From IMG/VR virus record IMGVR_UViG_2778261246_000004, positions 1 to 44,468 of that record: DNA of 44,468 nt. One strand, written 5' to 3'. The position numbers and the translations under genes are program-made. Of this stretch, positions 3,732 through 39,364 are shown piece by piece (position 1 is the first letter of the stretch; every line of letters begins with the position of its first letter). This DNA is from a virus. Taxonomy: Duplodnaviria > Heunggongvirae > Uroviricota > Caudoviricetes. The notes below the pieces were generated by a model. It worked only from the letters and a program-made list of their open reading frames with translations, ran no database searches and had not been told where the DNA came from.

Positions 3732-3756
3732 TTTTATTTCCTGATTCAGAAAACCA

Positions 3757-4857
3757 TTAACCGTAATAATTCACGCCTTTTTTATCGGCTTTTTTCTTCC
3801 CTGATGCTTTCCCTTTCACGGAGATATCGGTGGCCAGCGACAGATTCAGCGTAAATCCCTGCCCCGGTGCCAGTGAAAACTCCACCGACTCAGCCTGCCA
3901 GTTATGATCCTCGCGTACCCCAAAACCCTGCGTGATAAAACGCATCTCCGCTCCTGCTTTCAGCAGTTCCGGCCTGCAGGGCAACGTTATCGTCATCTGG
4001 CGTCCGGCTTTCTGCACACGTTTAACCTTCGACTCTGCACAGTGTTTTGCGGTATCCTGGTCAGGTTGGGTAAACGGATGCCGCTTGTCTGTTGACTCCA
4101 CGTCAACTTTAACTTCACGTGTGCGTCCGTCACGGGCATCAAAATACCGGACACCCACTTTCCCTTTTTTTGTTGTTCCTTTTCCGCCTCCGGATGCTCC
4201 CTGCCGCTCCCCCTCCCGGTAATCCCAGTCTGACACCATATCCGGTGTGATGGTCATTACAGGGGCATCCCTGCCACCTGTGCTCTGTGATGCACCATAC
4301 TCCAGAAATAACCAGTAACCGTTCGTCGGTTTACTGGTGGCACCATACATACCAGCAAGCCGGGAAAGCAGGGACGCATCCGATTCAGATGACTGCATCG
4401 CCCACGGAATACGAATTTTTGCCAGCGCCGGTGATACCTGCGCCACCAGATTATTTTCAGTGGCGATGGTTTTCACCAGGTCGCCCAGTGTGATATCGCT
4501 GAAAGCCCGGGTTTTCAGTGCGGTCACGTCTGCGCCATGTTTTGACGCATTCATGGGGGCTGCGGTGGCATAAATGGTGATCCGGCGGGGAGGACCGCCG
4601 CTTGCCACCTGACAGACTGTAAAGCTGCCTTTATTGACCAGGTTTCCGTTGAATCCCAGTCCCAGCATTAACACCGCGCCTTTTGGTGGCAGCGCCATCG
4701 TCTCACTGAACAGGGTTATCATCAGTTCATCAGAGCGCTTTGTGGCAGCACCATTATCGGTATAACGCAGTTCAGCCAGCCCCCGCTTTATGGCCTTCGT
4801 GATATCCTCACCCTCTGCTGTCAGGCTGAAATCCGGCTGATACTCATTCAGTCCCAT
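3757..4857 (-). CDS. Tail protein D (P2 gpD / late control D family)
   Basis: 366-aa ORF at the distal end of the sheath-tube-E-T-U-X-D block, matching P2 gene order; size and Gly/Lys-rich C-terminus typical. Confidence 0.7.
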   Translation of the reverse strand: MGLNEYQPDFSLTAEGEDITKAIKRGLAELRYTDNGAATKRSDELMITLFSETMALPPKGAVLMLGLGFNGNLVNKGSFTVCQVASGGPPRRITIYATAAPMNASKHGADVTALKTRAFSDITLGDLVKTIATENNLVAQVSPALAKIRIPWAMQSSESDASLLSRLAGMYGATSKPTNGYWLFLEYGASQSTGGRDAPVMTITPDMVSDWDYREGERQGASGGGKGTTKKGKVGVRYFDARDGRTREVKVDVESTDKRHPFTQPDQDTAKHCAESKVKRVQKAGRQMTITLPCRPELLKAGAEMRFITQGFGVREDHNWQAESVEFSLAPGQGFTLNLSLATDISVKGKASGKKKADKKGVNYYG

Positions 4858-25903: not shown

Positions 25904-26449
25904 TCACACAGCCACGCGCTCTTTCATCCAGCCGTAGACAAACGACTCGTTGGCCTCACGTTTTTCTGCCAGTTCCAGATAGCGGTCGCCCTGCGTGCAG
26001 TTCAGCGCTTTCACCAGTACCAATTCGCCGTCTTTGCCTCGTTTTTGCAGATATGCGCGTAGTGCATTAATAGTGCGTGGACCGATACGCCCGTCTGTGT
26101 CCATATCCGGGTACAACTTGCCTTGTTGATTGAACACGTTCAGCCAGCGTTGAAGCATTCTGGACGCCACGGTTGGTCCCATGTTCACGCCCGTATCGCA
26201 CAGTTCTGCGGCAATATCCGGCGACAGAGTTGCCACCTGGTCAAAACGTGGTCCGAACCAGTAATCCGCCTCGAGTATTTCCAGCGCCTGCCCGCGCGTC
26301 AGGTCACGCATATCGCCGCGATATCCGTGAGCGCGGGCGACTTTTTCTGTAATACCCCATTTTGTCGGCCCACCTTTATCGTCCGGATGATTGACGTAGC
26401 CACCCTCTTTTCCGAGGATTTCATCAAAAATGACGTCCTTTGATTTCAT
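25904..26449 (-). CDS. Endolysin, glycoside hydrolase family 108 N-terminal domain with C-terminal peptidoglycan-binding domain
   Basis: 181 aa; N-terminal EGGYVNHPDDKGGPTKWGIT motif characteristic of GH108 lysozymes; directly follows holin-like genes. Confidence 0.75.
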   Translation of the reverse strand: MKSKDVIFDEILGKEGGYVNHPDDKGGPTKWGITEKVARAHGYRGDMRDLTRGQALEILEADYWFGPRFDQVATLSPDIAAELCDTGVNMGPTVASRMLQRWLNVFNQQGKLYPDMDTDGRIGPRTINALRAYLQKRGKDGELVLVKALNCTQGDRYLELAEKREANESFVYGWMKERVAV

Positions 26450-26450
26450 C

Positions 26451-26729
26451 TCAGTGCCTCAACAATGGAAAGATTCTTGTGACATTCCCGCGCGCACGTA
26501 TCACCAGCACGCAAAACAGCAGGTTAAAAAACACTTCCAGCCAGCCCGTTGCTAACGGGCGACCACACAGATAGCTGAGGGGCGCAAAGGCATACAGCAG
26601 CATCAGCAGCCAGGCCAGCCATGACATCAGTGGTTTATGTCTGGAATCACGGCGACGATAAAAAAAGAGCGTCAGCACGATAACCGTGCATAACGCCACA
26701 TTCAGTAATCCGGGAAGGTTACTTAACAT
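26451..26729 (-). CDS. Membrane protein of lysis cassette (holin or antiholin-like, 92 aa)
   Basis: Start ATG 26729 with GGAGGAGG RBS, overlapping the upstream holin stop; 2-3 hydrophobic helices. Confidence 0.45.
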   Translation of the reverse strand: MLSNLPGLLNVALCTVIVLTLFFYRRRDSRHKPLMSWLAWLLMLLYAFAPLSYLCGRPLATGWLEVFFNLLFCVLVIRARGNVTRIFPLLRH

Positions 26730-27111
26730 TGCCGCCTCCTCCGCCCCGCAGGCGCGAGAACAGGCCGGACACCAGTGATGCAATATCCTGCTGGTGGATG
26801 AACGAGAGAATCTTCACCGACACCACCGCCACCAGCACCGCACACAGTGCATCCGCAGATGTACCGTCATAACCTGTTTTTGATGCAATCCAGGCTGACA
26901 GTACACGCGCCCCCAGCACACCAACAATGAACGACACCAGAAAATGTGCCGCCACACGCCAGGCTGAAATCTTCTGCGGCATCGTTGCCACAAATAACGC
27001 CCCGGCGAACGCACCAAACACAATCCCGAAATCCGTTCCGGTAAACAGCCCGAATACCGTCGCCCCGCCGAGCGCCACAGCCGTGCCGGAACCGGATAAG
27101 GGTTCAGACAT
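26719..27111 (-). CDS. Putative holin
   Basis: 130-aa ORF with AGGAGA RBS; Gly/Ala-rich hydrophobic helices; first gene of lysis cassette. Confidence 0.55.
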   Translation of the reverse strand: MSEPLSGSGTAVALGGATVFGLFTGTDFGIVFGAFAGALFVATMPQKISAWRVAAHFLVSFIVGVLGARVLSAWIASKTGYDGTSADALCAVLVAVVSVKILSFIHQQDIASLVSGLFSRLRGGGGGNVK

Positions 27112-27201
27112 ACTTTTTTCTCCTGTAAATAAAAAAGGGCCACCAGCGGCCCGTAAAAAAACACCCCATCAAAGGCACCCGCAGATGCCTTTTGTGTGGT
27201 G

Positions 27202-27354
27202 TTATTCAGATTTACGCAGTAAAGGCCGGAGCACGACCAGCGCCATCGCCACCAGCACACCATCTGCCAGCACCGACATCAGCCGTCCGGTGAAATCCAC
27301 CACCACTACCAGAAACAGCAGGATGGCAGCCAGCACAAGGTGCGCACTTTTCAC
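27202..27354 (-). CDS. Small hydrophobic ORF (50 aa, GTG start overlapping the upstream stop)
   Basis: cctGTGAaa overlap with the TerB-like gene stop, GGAG 8 nt upstream; VKSAHLVLAAILLFLVVVVDFTG...; not in ORF track (short). Confidence 0.3.
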   Translation of the reverse strand: MKSAHLVLAAILLFLVVVVDFTGRLMSVLADGVLVAMALVVLRPLLRKSE

Positions 27355-27776
27355 AGGTACTGCTCCAGCGGCAACTGCAGCGCCTGAGCAATTTTCTTGA
27401 GCTGTGCTTCTTCATCCGGACCAATGCCATCCTGGTCAGCAATATCAAGACACAGGCACAGCACATCAACCGCTTCGGCGGTTCCTGCCACATCAGCCAG
27501 TTCACGCAAAGCCTGAGCATTCGCACTACGAGGTGACGCTTCATAACGGGCGCGGATATTTGCACTCATTTGTGCAATCTCACCCGAGAACGGCGCAAAA
27601 GCAGGAAGTGCTGCAATGGTTTTCTCCAGCACAGCGATTTCTTTCGCATCACAGGTGCCGTCGGCGAATGCTATGGAATACGCGCCCCAGACGGTCGCCT
27701 CCACTGCGTCGCGGTTCTCCATCTTCTTCACTTCGGTAATGGCCTTGCGGGTTTTCTTTTTGAAAATACCAAACAT
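27351..27776 (-). CDS. TerB-like / DUF533-like protein
   Basis: 141-aa ORF with AAGGAA RBS; resemblance to TerB-family proteins is from memory only. Confidence 0.4.
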   Translation of the reverse strand: MFGIFKKKTRKAITEVKKMENRDAVEATVWGAYSIAFADGTCDAKEIAVLEKTIAALPAFAPFSGEIAQMSANIRARYEASPRSANAQALRELADVAGTAEAVDVLCLCLDIADQDGIGPDEEAQLKKIAQALQLPLEQYL

Positions 27777-28098
27777 CGTGACGTTTCCTTTTAGTGGGTG
27801 AGCCTCCGCCCTGGGGTGACCAGCCCACAGAGAAAGTCACACTGACCATCCCGTAAGCTCACCCCTGAAAGGCTCTGTGGTTTTTGATGTGCGCCGGGCG
27901 TGACGCAAAGAAATGAAATAAGAATTACCTGAAATTAAGGTTAATCTGAGGATTTAAACCATTTTTAATGCTTAGTAATATAAATACGTCTCTCTGGAGG
28001 AGAGAGATGCTTATTCTTCTTCATGGACTTTGTCCCGCGGCTTTAATCCGACAGCCGCGCCCTTTTTTCGCCAATATAAACCGGGTTGAACTCATACA

Positions 28099-28122
28099 AA
28101 AAGCTCGCCGAAGCGAGCCTGT
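28099..28122 (-). terminator. Rho-independent terminator-like hairpin downstream of tRNA-like element A
   Basis: Minus-strand RNA GCUCGC-UUCG-GCGAGC followed by U5. Confidence 0.45.
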
Positions 28123-28146
28123 TAAAAGTATATTTACCGTTACAAA

Positions 28147-28228
28147 TGGACCGTCACCGGGGACTCGAACCCCGCACCACAAAACAACAATACGTGTTAT
28201 GCACTCTTACCCGATGAGTTAGTGACGG
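28147..28228 (-). tRNA. tRNA-like element A (atypical; anticodon not assignable by eye)
   Basis: 7-bp acceptor stem CCGTCAC/GTGACGG, U8, A14, G18G19, canonical T-arm CGGGG-TTCGAGT-CCCCG and 3' CCA, but no clean anticodon arm; 82 nt. Confidence 0.35.
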
Positions 28229-28282
28229 TTTTTTGTTCTGTGGGAATCCAGCCTGACGACAGAATTACTGGAACACCTTGCA

Positions 28283-28318
28283 AAAAAAGCCAGCCACCAG
28301 AGACTGGCTGGCAAATTA
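28283..28318 (-). terminator. Rho-independent terminator-like hairpin
   Basis: Minus-strand RNA GCCAGCCA-loop-UGGCUGGC followed by U7. Confidence 0.45.
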
Positions 28319-28487
28319 CAAAGTTTAAATGATTCATCATACAATCGTCGTTACAGGGGAATCCTGCGGTGCAGCAAGATACAGAAATGTAAGCAAGCTA
28401 ACAATAAGCAAGAACAGCATCTTCGGAATTAGTTATATTTTTAACGATACAATGCTTATTTAGCGTACAACTCTGCCATTTACCGAA

Positions 28488-28513
28488 AAAAAACCGCCTG
28501 TTAAGGCGGTGGT
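28488..28513 (-). terminator. Rho-independent terminator-like hairpin
   Basis: Minus-strand RNA CCGCC-UUAACA-GGCGG followed by U8. Confidence 0.45.
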
Positions 28514-28881
28514 CAAATCAGTAAGTGCTGAAGAGTATTATTATAATATAGGTGAGGTGTCGGGTGCCTCCCGAAATACCTGACATTCCATCAGATACTG
28601 TAGTTTCCCCGCTAAACAACCACTTAAACCACCCCCGCACATGGAGCCCACCTCATTTTGTGATGTTAACAACATCGGGATAGTGCATAATCAGCCCCTG
28701 CATGGAAATATCAAAAAAAATCCCACCAATAATGCACTATTCCGATAGCATCAAAAAACACAGCACCGAAATCATAACTGGTCTCCGTTATAATTCGGGA
28801 GCGCGATAAGGGATATACGAGACCTTTTCCCGCGAGAAAAAAAACGCCAGTGCTGAAAAACCTGTACCTCATTTGTTTTGC

Positions 28882-28956
<75 letters not shown>

Positions 28957-28959
28957 ATA

Positions 28960-29035
<76 letters not shown>

Positions 29036-29037
29036 AC

Positions 29038-29114
29038 TGGACCGCCACCGGGGACTCGAACCTCGCACACTCAACTTAAAGGGTTGACGCTCTTTCCTGA
29101 TGAGCTAGTGGCGG
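29038..29114 (-). tRNA. tRNA-like element B (divergent; anticodon loop CCUUUAA, possibly UUU)
   Basis: Acceptor CCGCCAC/GTGGCGG, U8, A14, GG in D-loop, perfect 5-bp anticodon stem TCAAC/GTTGA, T-loop TTCGAGT, CCA; position 33 is C not U. Confidence 0.45.
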
Positions 29115-29115
29115 T

Positions 29116-29191
29116 TGGTGGCCCTTGCTGGATTTGAACCAGCGACCTGGCGATTATGAGTCGCTCGCTCTCACCACTGAGCTAAAGGGCC
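29116..29191 (-). tRNA. tRNA with anticodon CAU, closest to tRNA-Ile2 (lysidine type, ileX/ileZ-like)
   Basis: GGCCCTTTAGCTCAGTGGT.AGAGC...GACTCATAATCGC...GGTTCAAATCCAGCAAGGGCCACCA; near-identical to E. coli ileX by memory. Confidence 0.8.
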
Positions 29192-29311
29192 GAGCGCAGG
29201 ATAATAACGTTACAAAATCAATGTTGCAAGCACTCAAAAATCACCTGGTTAAAAATCACCCTGACCTCCTCCACCAGCGCATTCACCATGTCTATCCGAG
29301 ATAAGTGGCAC

Positions 29312-29336
29312 AAAAAAACCCGCTTGATGCGGGTTT
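29312..29336 (-). terminator. Strong rho-independent terminator on the minus strand (candidate late-operon tR')
   Basis: Minus-strand RNA ACCCGC-AUCAA-GCGGGU followed by U7. Confidence 0.5.
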
Positions 29337-29381
29337 AAGTTGTGTGGCGAAGCGACCACTCTTAACAGATTAAGATAGTTT

Positions 29382-29411
29382 TTGCGTACGCGTTAGTGAT
29401 TTTTTCATAAT
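29382..29411 (+). promoter_or_regulatory. Candidate sigma70 promoter for the plus-strand three-gene cassette
   Basis: TTGCGT - 18 nt - CATAAT about 45 nt upstream of the first ATG. Confidence 0.35.
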
Positions 29412-29456
29412 TATCTGTATCCTGTGACTATTTCTCTTGCGCAAAGGATGCTTTTG

Positions 29457-30335
29457 ATGACGCAGCAACTCGAAAACATGCCAATAACAGAAATCGAAAT
29501 TGCCTACGGTGGAGAGGCATACGCAGACAATCAGATCGACGCGAAAACATTAGGCGAAGCCTTAACCTCTCTTAGTGCCCTGATTGAACATGCCGAAAAA
29601 ATAATTAATGGCGAAACAGCAGAGCCGAAAGTCAACATCAAGGCAACAAAAGAAGGTTCATTTACTTTGCTTGTTGCTGTGATGGGGAGCATAAAAACTA
29701 TTAACGCCCTTGGCCTCGTTGCAGGTGGTGGAGTTGCCGCAGGTGGCGTACTCGGGATAATCGAATGGCTCAAAGGGCGTAAAATCAGCTCCATTGTCGT
29801 CGATGAACAAAAAGATACAGCAGAAATCGAAGTGGATGGTGAGAAGGTTAAATGCAGTAACGACATTCAAAAATTAATAACCAGTCCAATCATCCGAAAA
29901 GAACTGGATAAATTAATCTATAAACCCCTGCAGACTGAAAAACCATCCACGTTCTCAGTTTCACAGCAGAAGCATAAGGTAGTCAGGGTGACGCAAGCTG
30001 AAGCAGTAAGTTTTAAAACTGCAAAATCCACCTTTGTCGAGAAAACGCACGTAACGACACGCCAAGCTAATGTACATTTTGCTAATGTTCGATTCAAGCA
30101 AGGCAAAAGCTGGGATATCATCCTGCCAAATGGCGAAGAAGTTAGCGCATCTATGAAAGATGAGGCTTTTCTTGAACGGGTTGAACACAACCAAGCAGCA
30201 TTCTGTAAGGGCGATCTTTTTGTTGTAGAACTGACAGAAACAACAAAAGAAACAAATGGCGCGCTGTCTAAACCACGCTATAGTATTACTAAGGTTATAC
30301 GCCACAGAGCGGCGGCAGATAGGAAACTACTTTAA
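29457..30335 (+). CDS. Hypothetical protein, cassette gene 1 (292 aa, central Gly/Ala-rich hydrophobic segment)
   Basis: ORF from 29424 (GTG); preferred start ATG 29457 with AAAGGA RBS; A/T-rich codon usage; no family recognised. Confidence 0.5.
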   Translation: MTQQLENMPITEIEIAYGGEAYADNQIDAKTLGEALTSLSALIEHAEKIINGETAEPKVNIKATKEGSFTLLVAVMGSIKTINALGLVAGGGVAAGGVLGIIEWLKGRKISSIVVDEQKDTAEIEVDGEKVKCSNDIQKLITSPIIRKELDKLIYKPLQTEKPSTFSVSQQKHKVVRVTQAEAVSFKTAKSTFVEKTHVTTRQANVHFANVRFKQGKSWDIILPNGEEVSASMKDEAFLERVEHNQAAFCKGDLFVVELTETTKETNGALSKPRYSITKVIRHRAAADRKLL

Positions 30336-30584: not shown

Positions 30585-30971
30585 ATGGCTAACACTAAAT
30601 CCTACCTGGCAATGCAGGCATGGTTTACCACCCTTATCACTGCGGGATTGAATTTCCTTTTTGACTGGCTTCCTCAATTAGCCTTCTTCAAATCATTGGC
30701 GCCTGGAGCTGCTGTCGGCTTATCTCATGTGGTAATTCTTCTTATCGCTTACATAGGTTTGCCTACGCTTAATGATGTAAGAATGAAAAGAGAAATAAAA
30801 ACGGCCAGAAAATTCATCACGAACTGCCTGGCCAACCCTAACCTAACACCAGACCAAATTGCGCACTACAACCAATGTCTTATCGATCTAGACAATAAGC
30901 TATTAAAAAACATAAATATTCGTATTGATGCTTTATCTGACGCCGAATCGAAAGCTCAAGCAAACGAGTAG
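30585..30971 (+). CDS. Hypothetical membrane protein, cassette gene 3 (128 aa, two TM helices)
   Basis: TGAATG stop-start junction with gene 2; hydrophobic helices WFTTLITAGLNFLFDWL and AAVGLSHVVILLIAYIGL. Confidence 0.5.
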   Translation: MANTKSYLAMQAWFTTLITAGLNFLFDWLPQLAFFKSLAPGAAVGLSHVVILLIAYIGLPTLNDVRMKREIKTARKFITNCLANPNLTPDQIAHYNQCLIDLDNKLLKNINIRIDALSDAESKAQANE

Positions 30972-30984
30972 TAACAGTCATAAC

Positions 30985-31335
30985 TTATGATAGAATCAAG
31001 CATATACATCCATCAATAAAGCCTAATGCAGTTTGCAGCTCCTTTCTTATAGTTCCATCTGAGCACCTGCGTTTCTTCGCGATTGAGCGTAGAGAAACAC
31101 CAATAACAAAGTGAGCTATGATCAGCTCATATTCCTCTGGTTTATACTTTCGCAACCGAGCCACACAACCGTCTATCATGATGCCTTCATCATCATCACA
31201 CTGGAGACGTGACTTTTTACCATGTGGCAAAAGCCCCTTGAAGCCCGCTGCTATCGGTTGCCAATCGACACCGCTATTTTCTGCTGCAGCCCATGCCCCC
31301 CAGCGATCTAAAACCTCATACATATCACGCCCCAT
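30985..31335 (-). CDS. Late-gene antiterminator Q (QuuD-like)
   Basis: 116-119 aa; LDRWGAWAA...W..IAAGFKGLL resembles DLP12 QuuD by memory; sits between rusA and the late region. Confidence 0.55.
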   Translation of the reverse strand: MGRDMYEVLDRWGAWAAAENSGVDWQPIAAGFKGLLPHGKKSRLQCDDDEGIMIDGCVARLRKYKPEEYELIIAHFVIGVSLRSIAKKRRCSDGTIRKELQTALGFIDGCICLILS

Positions 31336-31701
31336 TACCATCACCTCTGATTTCGCAAATCTTCACGCCCAGTCGCCCACCAGGAACGAGCTGACCGCGC
31401 ACAATATTGATTTCATCAAACTGCTCGTCGTCTATGAGAAGCCCCGCATGCGTCAGTGCATCCAGCGGTGCTTTCAGGATATTGTCCAGGTCGCGGCGGC
31501 GCTTATCCGGTGGCTCCGCAATAATCTTTATCGCCAGCCTTCCGGACAGGTTTAATTTCAACCGCTGCTGGCGAACAATTAGCGCCACATCATGGCGATA
31601 ACGCTTTCCGGCCTCCGAGATGAAATACGTATTCCATGACGTCGCCAGTAGGTATTCACCGTCGGCGGGTAAGGTAAAACAAATTCTATGCGTTCAGTCA
31701 T
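31325..31701 (-). pseudogene. rusA: rusA Holliday-junction resolvase disrupted by a 1-nt frameshift
   Basis: N-terminal frame from ATG 31701 gives MTERIEFVLPYPPTVNTYWRRHG then stops at 31580-31582; C-terminal frame (ORF 31325-31588) gives ...YFISEAGKRYRHDVALIV...PDKRRRDLDN...; both halves match RusA; join at GGAATACG (about 31628-31636) implies loss of one A. Confidence 0.65.
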
Positions 31702-39311: not shown

Positions 39312-39364
39312 TTTCTGGTGACGTTTGGCGGTATCAGTTTTACTCCGTGACTGCTCTGCCGCCC
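39312..39364 (+). ncRNA. dicF: DicF small regulatory RNA
   Basis: UUUCUGGUGACGUUUGGCGGUAUCAGUUUUACUCCGUGACUGCUCUGCCGCCC plus U5 matches remembered E. coli DicF; lies between ydfC-like and dicB as in Qin. Confidence 0.8.

Follow-up and report, generated by a model that had tools for sequence, protein, structure and literature searches.

Conserved coupling of a TerB-family gene, tciA, to a small hydrophobic-peptide gene, tciB, between the tRNA and lysis genes of a lambdoid prophage

The DNA analysed here comprises positions 1 to 44,468 of the IMG/VR virus record IMGVR_UViG_2778261246_000004 (Caudoviricetes), and this whole stretch of 44,468 nucleotides (nt) is referred to as the window. It represents a lambdoid prophage, with lambda-type terminase and portal genes lying beyond the gene for antiterminator Q (30985-31344, minus strand, PF06530). 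Two overlapping open reading frames (ORFs), designated tciA and tciB, are found on the minus strand in the interval between Q and the lysis genes. The first, tciA (27351-27776), starts with ATG and encodes a protein of 141 amino acids (aa) with a predicted TerB fold, and the second, tciB (27202-27354), starts with GTG and encodes a hydrophobic 50-aa peptide of the DUF3927 family. The GTG of tciB shares bases with the TGA of tciA in a GTGA overlap (27351-27354) that is a candidate translational-coupling junction. A Shine-Dalgarno sequence, AAGGA (27786-27790), lies 9 nt 5' of the tciA ATG and is kept in 33 distinct leader sequences, while a Shine-Dalgarno-like GGAG (27363-27366) is located within the last tciA codons, 8 nt 5' of the tciB GTG. 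The latter becomes a weaker GGAT or GGAC in other genera, so that tciB expression there is probably dependent on coupling to tciA, as far as the sequences indicate. A preliminary description of this stretch, made from the letters alone, had reported the coordinates of the two ORFs, their lengths, the GTGA overlap, a good ribosome-binding site for the longer ORF and a location between a tRNA cluster and a holin gene; all of these are borne out by the ORF list and the sequence.

The pair is followed, 3' of the tciB stop, by a hairpin (AAAAGGCAtctgcgggTGCCTTT, 27171-27193, minus strand, with a T-rich tail on the plus strand) that is almost unchanged across the window, E. coli STEC308 and phage phiP27. 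A second hairpin, resembling an intrinsic terminator, was detected by a terminator scan 16 nt before the holin ATG (GGGCCgctggtGGCCC, then TTTTTTATTT; 27127-27152, minus strand); its stem (27137-27152) and T6 run between tciB and the holin gene are also kept in phiP27 and STEC308. Outside the module, the lysis cassette begins with a Phage_holin_8 holin (26719-27111, minus strand; PF16931, 83.7 bits), followed by a 3TM holin (26451-26783) and a GH108 endolysin (25904-26449). On the upstream side, a tRNA-like gene (28147-28228, minus strand) is followed immediately by another terminator-like hairpin found by the same scan (28101-28120, minus strand), and four tRNA genes lie further upstream on the same strand (28882-29191). 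A search of the spacer between tciB and the holin gene against Rfam gave no family.

By sequence comparison, the window pair almost certainly corresponds to tciA-tciB, a pair that received its name in phage P1, and the lambdoid prophage carries it as a piece of accessory cargo, or "moron". By megablast, P1 tciA shows 81% nucleotide identity to tciA of the window, and at the protein level the identity to P1 is 87% for TciA and 46% for TciB. The P1 tciABC genes have the same order, a tciA product of the same length (141 aa), an overlap of start and stop codons, and phage tRNA genes in their flanks. However, differences were observed between the two forms. The P1 junction is TGATG instead of GTGA, P1 lacks the conserved 125-nt leader of the lambdoid form, and its genes lie in the ban operon and not in a lambdoid late operon. 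In addition, P1 carries a 35-codon tciC after tciB that has no counterpart in the window, where the gap between tciB and the holin gene is 90 nt and no minus-strand ORF of at least 30 aa occurs in 27112-27201; among the other fetched loci, tciC was found only in the P1-like L012. In a genome-wide CRISPR interference (CRISPRi) study, tciA, tciB and tciC of P1 were scored as non-essential (PMC10695390), and the P1 and window pairs are both counted as non-essential accessory genes.

The gene pair is already known and annotated, and it is common rather than strange. RefSeq labels the two products "tellurite resistance TerB family protein" and "DUF3927 family protein" in 165 genomes with 96-98% identity, and IMG/VR holds copies with a 100% identical TciA. 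Up to six copies are present per Escherichia coli genome, with four in the O157:H7 strain EDL933. Among 5,426 complete E. coli genomes, blastn located the leader that precedes tciA in the lambdoid form in 1,281, at 2,717 places in all, which, judged from these matches, puts the pair in at least about 24% of the genomes; two of the places were inspected, one lying before tciAB (EDL933) and the other before a degraded copy (O104:H4). Over tciA, tciB and both holin genes, the window is 91% identical to the record PP818812.1, whose name, "Actinobacillus phage vB_Apl-pPE4", gives a host that is unexpected for an Escherichia-type sequence.

The association of the two genes was examined in 96 loci with a full tciA, drawn from the window, P1, E. 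coli genomes, 16 species genomes and 80 viral contigs. The start of a DUF3927 ORF overlaps the tciA stop in 95 of them (GTGA in 91, TGATG or TAATG in four), the single exception being a contig that ends within tciA; the conservation of the pair in related prophages, proposed as a check in the preliminary description, thus holds. For tciA the ratio of non-synonymous to synonymous polymorphism (pN/pS) is 0.12, for tciB it is 0.55, and the other reading frames give 0.8-3.2. The higher ratio of tciB is in keeping with a peptide in which one hydrophobic residue can stand in for another. At four-fold degenerate sites, on the other hand, tciB differs less than tciA (0.130 versus 0.296 in 64 lambdoid loci). 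This pattern could have arisen from a mosaic history, or the DNA or RNA of tciB may be under an additional constraint.

Small hydrophobic ORFs also accompany more distant members of the family. All 15 metagenomic loci encoding TerB proteins of the P0255 group (41% identical to TciA) have a hydrophobic ORF of 46-60 codons that overlaps the TerB gene or starts within 6 nt of it, and one locus with a 59%-identical TciA relative has such an ORF too. The junctions in these 16 loci are TTGAATAA, ATGA or GTGA, apart from one locus in which the small ORF begins 6 nt beyond the stop. Most of the distant peptides share the motif hF[TL]G..[AM]S.[FL][AS]DG[VI]L, the exceptions being those of L113 and L115, and the database protein P0181 is a natural TciA-TciB fusion. 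At the sequence level, the pairing of a TerB protein with a small peptide therefore reaches beyond what DUF3927 detects, and the coupling of tciA to tciB is old and apparently obligatory. Because the TciB start overlaps the TciA stop in these relatives, both proteins are probably made together from one mRNA and in fixed proportion. A separate observation concerns three metagenome contigs of the distant set (L103, L104 and L106), in which a second TerB-family ORF of 124-134 aa lies about 140 nt 3' of the small ORF; together with the distant TerB and small-peptide pair it makes a three-gene unit, and in L103 it matches Pfam TerB with an E value of 2.8e-7.

The preliminary description had called TciA TerB-like, with a profile search against Pfam TerB and DUF533 proposed as a check, and the assignment is upheld by both sequence and predicted structure. 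The protein scores 29.9 bits against Pfam TerB (PF05099; gathering cut-off 24.4, E 7.5e-7) and matches PHROG 632, "tellurite resistance", with an E value of 5.6e-65. Relatives were found with HMMER in 173 clusters at E<=1e-3 among 1.84 billion representative proteins; most of them are stand-alone proteins of 140-150 aa that are 27-43% identical to TciA and have an MFG..KK N-terminus and two ADG.....E motifs. In the family alignment, 92 of 93 members match Pfam TerB (best E 9e-21) and 24 also match DUF533. The N-terminus of TciA itself, MFGIFKKKTRK, is basic and hydrophobic, and its two acidic ADGxxxxxE-type motifs occupy residues 38-46 and 113-122, with G40, E46, G117 and E122 almost invariant in relatives of 27-89% identity. 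An AlphaFold2 model computed from the family alignment has six helices, a mean predicted local distance difference test score (pLDDT) of 91 and a predicted template modelling score (pTM) of 0.84. When this model was searched with Foldseek, 2h5n was the sole probable match in the PDB (probability 1.0, template modelling score 0.52-0.57), while a PDB sequence search with the TciA profile gave E 0.58 at best and NCBIfam returned only a sub-threshold DjlA match (E 0.035). TciA is thus predicted to be a soluble, cytoplasmic six-helix protein of the TerB fold.

The small ORF, which the preliminary description took to encode a very hydrophobic peptide, proves to be a conserved gene. Its product matches Pfam DUF3927 (PF13064) over residues 4-48 with 52 bits (cut-off 25) and PHROG 1470, "TciB-like", with an E value of 6.5e-23, and its grand average of hydropathy (GRAVY) is +1.47. 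Hydrophobic segments span residues of about 6-19 and 25-42 and are separated by D20-F-T-G-R24, and basic residues are present at both ends. The conserved core reads VDFTG..MSVLADGVLV...P, in which the DUF3927 alignment shows no variation at D20, F21, T22, S27, D31, G32 and P44, so that an invariant polar S..DG motif lies inside the second hydrophobic segment. Given the dip in hydropathy and the terminal basic residues, a hairpin whose two ends are cytoplasmic is the favoured topology. The Pfam search found no match to a holin family. Alignment with MAFFT repeatedly set LADGVLV of TciB (residues 29-35) against the ADG motif FADGTCD of TciA (residues 37-43); this resemblance may be fortuitous, or it may mean that TciB imitates or completes a repeat of the TerB type.

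The pair recurs in three genomic slots. The first, from Q (often with tRNA genes) to the holins, is occupied in the window, STEC308, CV839-06, L011 and prophages of Citrobacter, Pseudescherichia and Enterobacter, and the neighbouring endolysin varies by prophage, being of the M15, the GH108 or a third, unclassified type. The second lies on the same strand 3' of a cI-type repressor with helix-turn-helix and Peptidase_S24 domains in L009 and L014, which is the position of rexAB in lambda. The third is the ban operon, in P1, L012 and L013. A functional link between the tRNA genes and tciAB was considered and rejected, as the tRNA genes are absent from many loci.

The first of these slots is also used by Shiga toxin genes, by stx2e in phiP27 and by stx in other Stx phages, as the preliminary description had suggested when it placed the cargo at the stx position. 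In phiP27, stxA2e and stxB2e lie between the tRNA genes and the same holin pair, whose products are 88-95% identical in amino-acid sequence to those of the window. When the segment between stxB2e and the holin gene was aligned with window positions 27202-27300, phiP27 was seen to keep about 95 nt from the 3' end of tciB, lacking a single nucleotide, together with both downstream hairpins (L002 about 3739-3828, minus strand). This frameshifted remnant indicates, by sequence comparison, that the stx2e cassette took the place of tciA and the 5' part of tciB in the phiP27 lineage. The site thus holds a toxin cargo in phiP27 and a predicted membrane module in the window. In the sense in which moron was used by Juhala et al. 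(2000), the pair is present or absent between otherwise homologous phages at a module boundary (window versus phiP27 and STEC308), and at the sequence level it has a terminator of its own (27137-27152 with its T-run). The arrangement in STEC308 (L001 9052-14510) is a further observation on this site: its stx2 operon has an IS2 between stxA and stxB, and tciAB follows further 3' after a second set of tRNA genes, giving two tandem cargo slots.

In EDL933, the gene order is Q region, tRNA-Ile, tRNA-Arg, tciA, tciB, sialate esterase and holin S. The small RNA gene STnc100 starts on the same strand 5 nt after the tciB stop and is directly followed by the convergent anti-GcvB small RNA AgvB (L021 4228-4482). 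A "moron CDS + convergent sRNAs" arrangement has been described at the pR' insertion site of the Sakai prophages (Tree et al. 2014, PMC4104026). Given STnc100 and AgvB right after tciB, tciAB is, on the sequence, the moron coding sequence of this site in O157:H7. A 2026 preprint names TerB (PF05099) among the conserved neighbours of the prophage small RNAs PasA and PasC. In the window, the Rfam search found no small RNA of the AgvB or AsxR type after tciB.

The surroundings of the pair also bear on its expression. A consensus scan, which weak or non-consensus sites could escape, found no sigma-70 consensus promoter on the minus strand in 27777-28100, and terminator-like hairpins flank the module. 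Such minus-strand hairpins are enriched in 26600-29400 (14, versus 3.8 expected from shuffles), which fits a late leader region antiterminated by Q. From the lack of a consensus promoter and the flanking terminators, most transcription of tciAB in the window probably starts at pR' after induction and reads through with antitermination by Q, as in the case of stx2.

In the lambdoid form, tciA is preceded by a conserved 5' leader of ~125 nt (27777-27905, minus strand, defined by alignments). Per-site differences among the 64 loci amount to 0.060 in the leader, compared with 0.296 at four-fold sites of tciA and 0.028 at its first and second codon positions. The leader is therefore, by this comparison, under purifying selection, being kept five-fold better than synonymous sites. 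RNAalifold applied to the 33 distinct leaders predicted a long helix between CCUUUcA.GGGG.GAGCU (27856-27872) and GGCUC.CCC.CU.AAAGG (27787-27804), which covers the tciA ribosome-binding site, so that the leader may modulate the translation of tciA. Across the helix, 97.4% of the cells are paired, and three pairs (five cells) are compensatory, against 0.6 expected; the observed values were reached in 2 of 500 shuffles for the pair count and in none of 500 for the cell count. An alternative open fold showed no covariation above controls. In thermodynamic folding the closed and open forms compete, with a probability of 0.25-0.64 that the Shine-Dalgarno sequence is unpaired in all but one leader, and the single-sequence fold is not better than that of shuffles (z -1.3). 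For 27777-27905, Rfam 15 gave no match at the gathering threshold, nor any with E<=10, and a literature search for the leader sequence strings found nothing. With sequences so closely related, the predicted structure is to be taken as a lead only. A small ORF in the leader region (27649-27849) was rejected as a coding candidate, since L007 and L008 lack its start codon and indels put it out of frame.

Several known systems suggest how the two proteins could work together. TerB has been described as membrane-associated and as a component of the Bunzi and Shango anti-phage systems (bioRxiv 10.1101/2022.05.11.491447), and a role against superinfecting phages has been suggested for Ter components carried by phages (PMC7824862). 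DjlA consists of a transmembrane helix, then a TerB-like domain, and a J domain. In DjlA and the Bunzi and Shango proteins, the TerB domain is located at the cytoplasmic face of the inner membrane, as proposed here for TciA. In TciAB, however, the membrane element is a separate polypeptide and there is no J domain. Lambda rexA-rexB offers a further parallel, being an accessory unit of one soluble and one membrane protein like tciAB and sharing with it the slot downstream of cI in two prophages, although the two units have no similarity in sequence or size; RexB is a multi-pass membrane protein.

On this basis, the following mechanism can be outlined. TciB would insert into the inner membrane, in the simplest case as a helical hairpin whose two basic ends face the cytoplasm, and would recruit TciA to the cytoplasmic face, with the basic and hydrophobic N-terminus of TciA contributing. 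The two proteins would thereby form a split version of the arrangement of transmembrane helix and TerB domain seen in DjlA and the Bunzi defence protein. The signal that the complex could sense or buffer would be associated with the membrane, for example a divalent cation or other small ligand bound at the acidic TerB motifs; the complex could then alter the behaviour of the membrane so that the infected or lysogenic cell resists superinfecting phages or pore-forming colicins, while the module would be dispensable for phage growth. This two-subunit mechanism at the inner membrane, serving exclusion or stress protection, is argued from analogy and is put forward tentatively, at odds somewhat short of even. 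Taken as a whole, with identity, anatomy, mechanism and expression combined, it forms part of the explanation that best accounts for the observations, to which we would assign a probability of roughly 0.45.

Several points weigh against this explanation. No experiment on the function of TciA or TciB was found in the searchable literature, and neither protein matches any PADLOC model, including those for Bunzi and Shango, at E<=1. The AlphaFold2 model of TciB is one continuous helix (residues 2-48, pLDDT 92) rather than a hairpin. The binding of a ligand or metal by the ADG....E motifs is putative. Finally, if expression from pR' is confined to the late phase, the protection of a lysogen becomes less plausible than a role in lytic growth.

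A rival explanation is an accessory of lysis timing, in which TciB, produced shortly ahead of the holins from a shared late transcript, would act with TciA to modulate holin triggering in the manner of an antiholin or to hold the membrane potential until lysis. The position of the pair speaks for it, as tciAB lies directly 5' of the Phage_holin_8 and 3TM holin genes in lambdoid prophages of Escherichia, Citrobacter, Pseudescherichia and Enterobacter, and does so at holin identities of only 46-48%; the apparent lack of a consensus promoter of its own would imply co-expression with the lysis genes, and TciB is hydrophobic and of holin size. However, the pairs of the P1 type and those adjacent to cI are far from lysis genes, two small RNA genes and an esterase gene separate pair and holin in O157:H7, and two hairpins, one of them terminator-like, do so in the window. 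Phage phiP27 is functional despite the loss of tciA and the 5' part of tciB, and TciB has no match to a holin family, so that this explanation is considered unlikely.

An abortive infection system like Rex, in which TciA would act as a cytoplasmic sensor that, on a phage signal, activates TciB to depolarise the membrane, so that the cell is killed or arrested and the invader excluded, is equally doubtful. The rexA-rexB position of the pair in L009 and L014, on the same strand 3' of a cI-type repressor, the architecture of a soluble and a membrane component in fixed stoichiometry, the invariant polar residues S27, D31 and G32 in a hydrophobic helix, and the presence of TerB domains in Bunzi and Shango are all consistent with it. 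Against these stand the lack of a PADLOC match and of any sequence relation to RexA or RexB, the absence of an evident channel architecture in a 50-aa peptide, and the expression of the window module, which seems to be late rather than lysogenic. A further reading, in which the leader is an undescribed cis-regulatory RNA that switches between forms with an occluded and an open ribosome-binding site and controls a split device of TerB sensor and mini membrane subunit for Rex-like exclusion, defence or counter-defence, also seems improbable.

A genuine determinant of resistance to tellurite, other oxyanions or metals is less likely still. Membership in Pfam TerB and the TerB-like fold agree with such a function, and the conserved acidic motifs would be compatible with cation binding. 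TciA indeed shares the Pfam family and the helical fold with TerB of the ter operon (terZABCDEF) and with the TerB-like structures 2ou3 and 2h5n, but it is too dissimilar for a sequence match in the PDB, has no other ter genes nearby and has a dedicated small membrane partner instead. The name was derived from homology alone in the P1 annotation, and no tciA phenotype has been reported. No terC, terD, terE or terZ was found among the scanned ORFs of the window or in an annotated prophage 97.5% identical to it, the neighbouring genes being those of lysis, packaging and regulation; two papers treat the multigene ter operon, not terB alone, as the determinant (PMC8123226, PMC8193136). Lastly, a counter-defence decoy, by which a phage TerB would mimic or titrate host TerB sensor domains (Bunzi, Shango, Ter) during lytic growth, agrees with the apparently lytic expression here (pR' read-through) and in P1 (C1-controlled ban operon) and with the TerB domains of defence systems, but it is purely speculative, leaves the obligatory membrane partner and the cI-adjacent, lysogenic versions unexplained, and is highly improbable.

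Other features were observed in the window. Two plus-strand ORFs (29424-30335 and 30585-30971) lie between Q and the tRNA cluster. For the product of the first (303 aa), matches were obtained to PDC-S42 (E 3e-53), a candidate defence family of PADLOC, and to PHROG 3243; that of the second (128 aa) matches only PHROG 26468, and neither has a Pfam match. By sequence, the two ORFs look like a second cargo insertion in the same interval between Q and the lysis genes. The tRNA-like gene at 28147-28228 (minus strand) is called by ARAGORN as an 82-nt tRNA-Val(AAC) and falls below the Rfam tRNA threshold. In prophage L004, PGAP annotates no tRNA at the matching position, where ARAGORN makes the same call, and the gene is probably a degenerate tRNA-like remnant. 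Between the tRNA genes, 28279-28426 (minus strand) has sub-threshold matches to small RNAs of the Hfq-binding type (VqmR, 29 bits; Qrr, 23.5 bits) and ends at its 3' side in a strong intrinsic terminator (28289-28312) with a T-run, and may be an unannotated prophage small RNA gene. In addition, a gene for the antisense RNA DicF (39313-39364, plus strand; Rfam, 76.7 bits) is present in an early region that aligns with the dicB- and ydfD-bearing region of L004.

The tciAB genes are among the commonest accessory cargoes of E. coli prophages and share an insertion site with the Shiga toxin genes, yet they have kept a placeholder name since the annotation of the P1 genome. Beyond the labels given in databases, the present analysis adds the strict and deep coupling of the two genes, the tciB scar in phiP27, three recurrent accessory slots and a conserved leader. 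If the pair is indeed a module for exclusion, defence or protection from membrane stress, this would explain its wide retention, and the TerB domain, which is poorly understood, would gain a minimal model made of two proteins, TciA and TciB.

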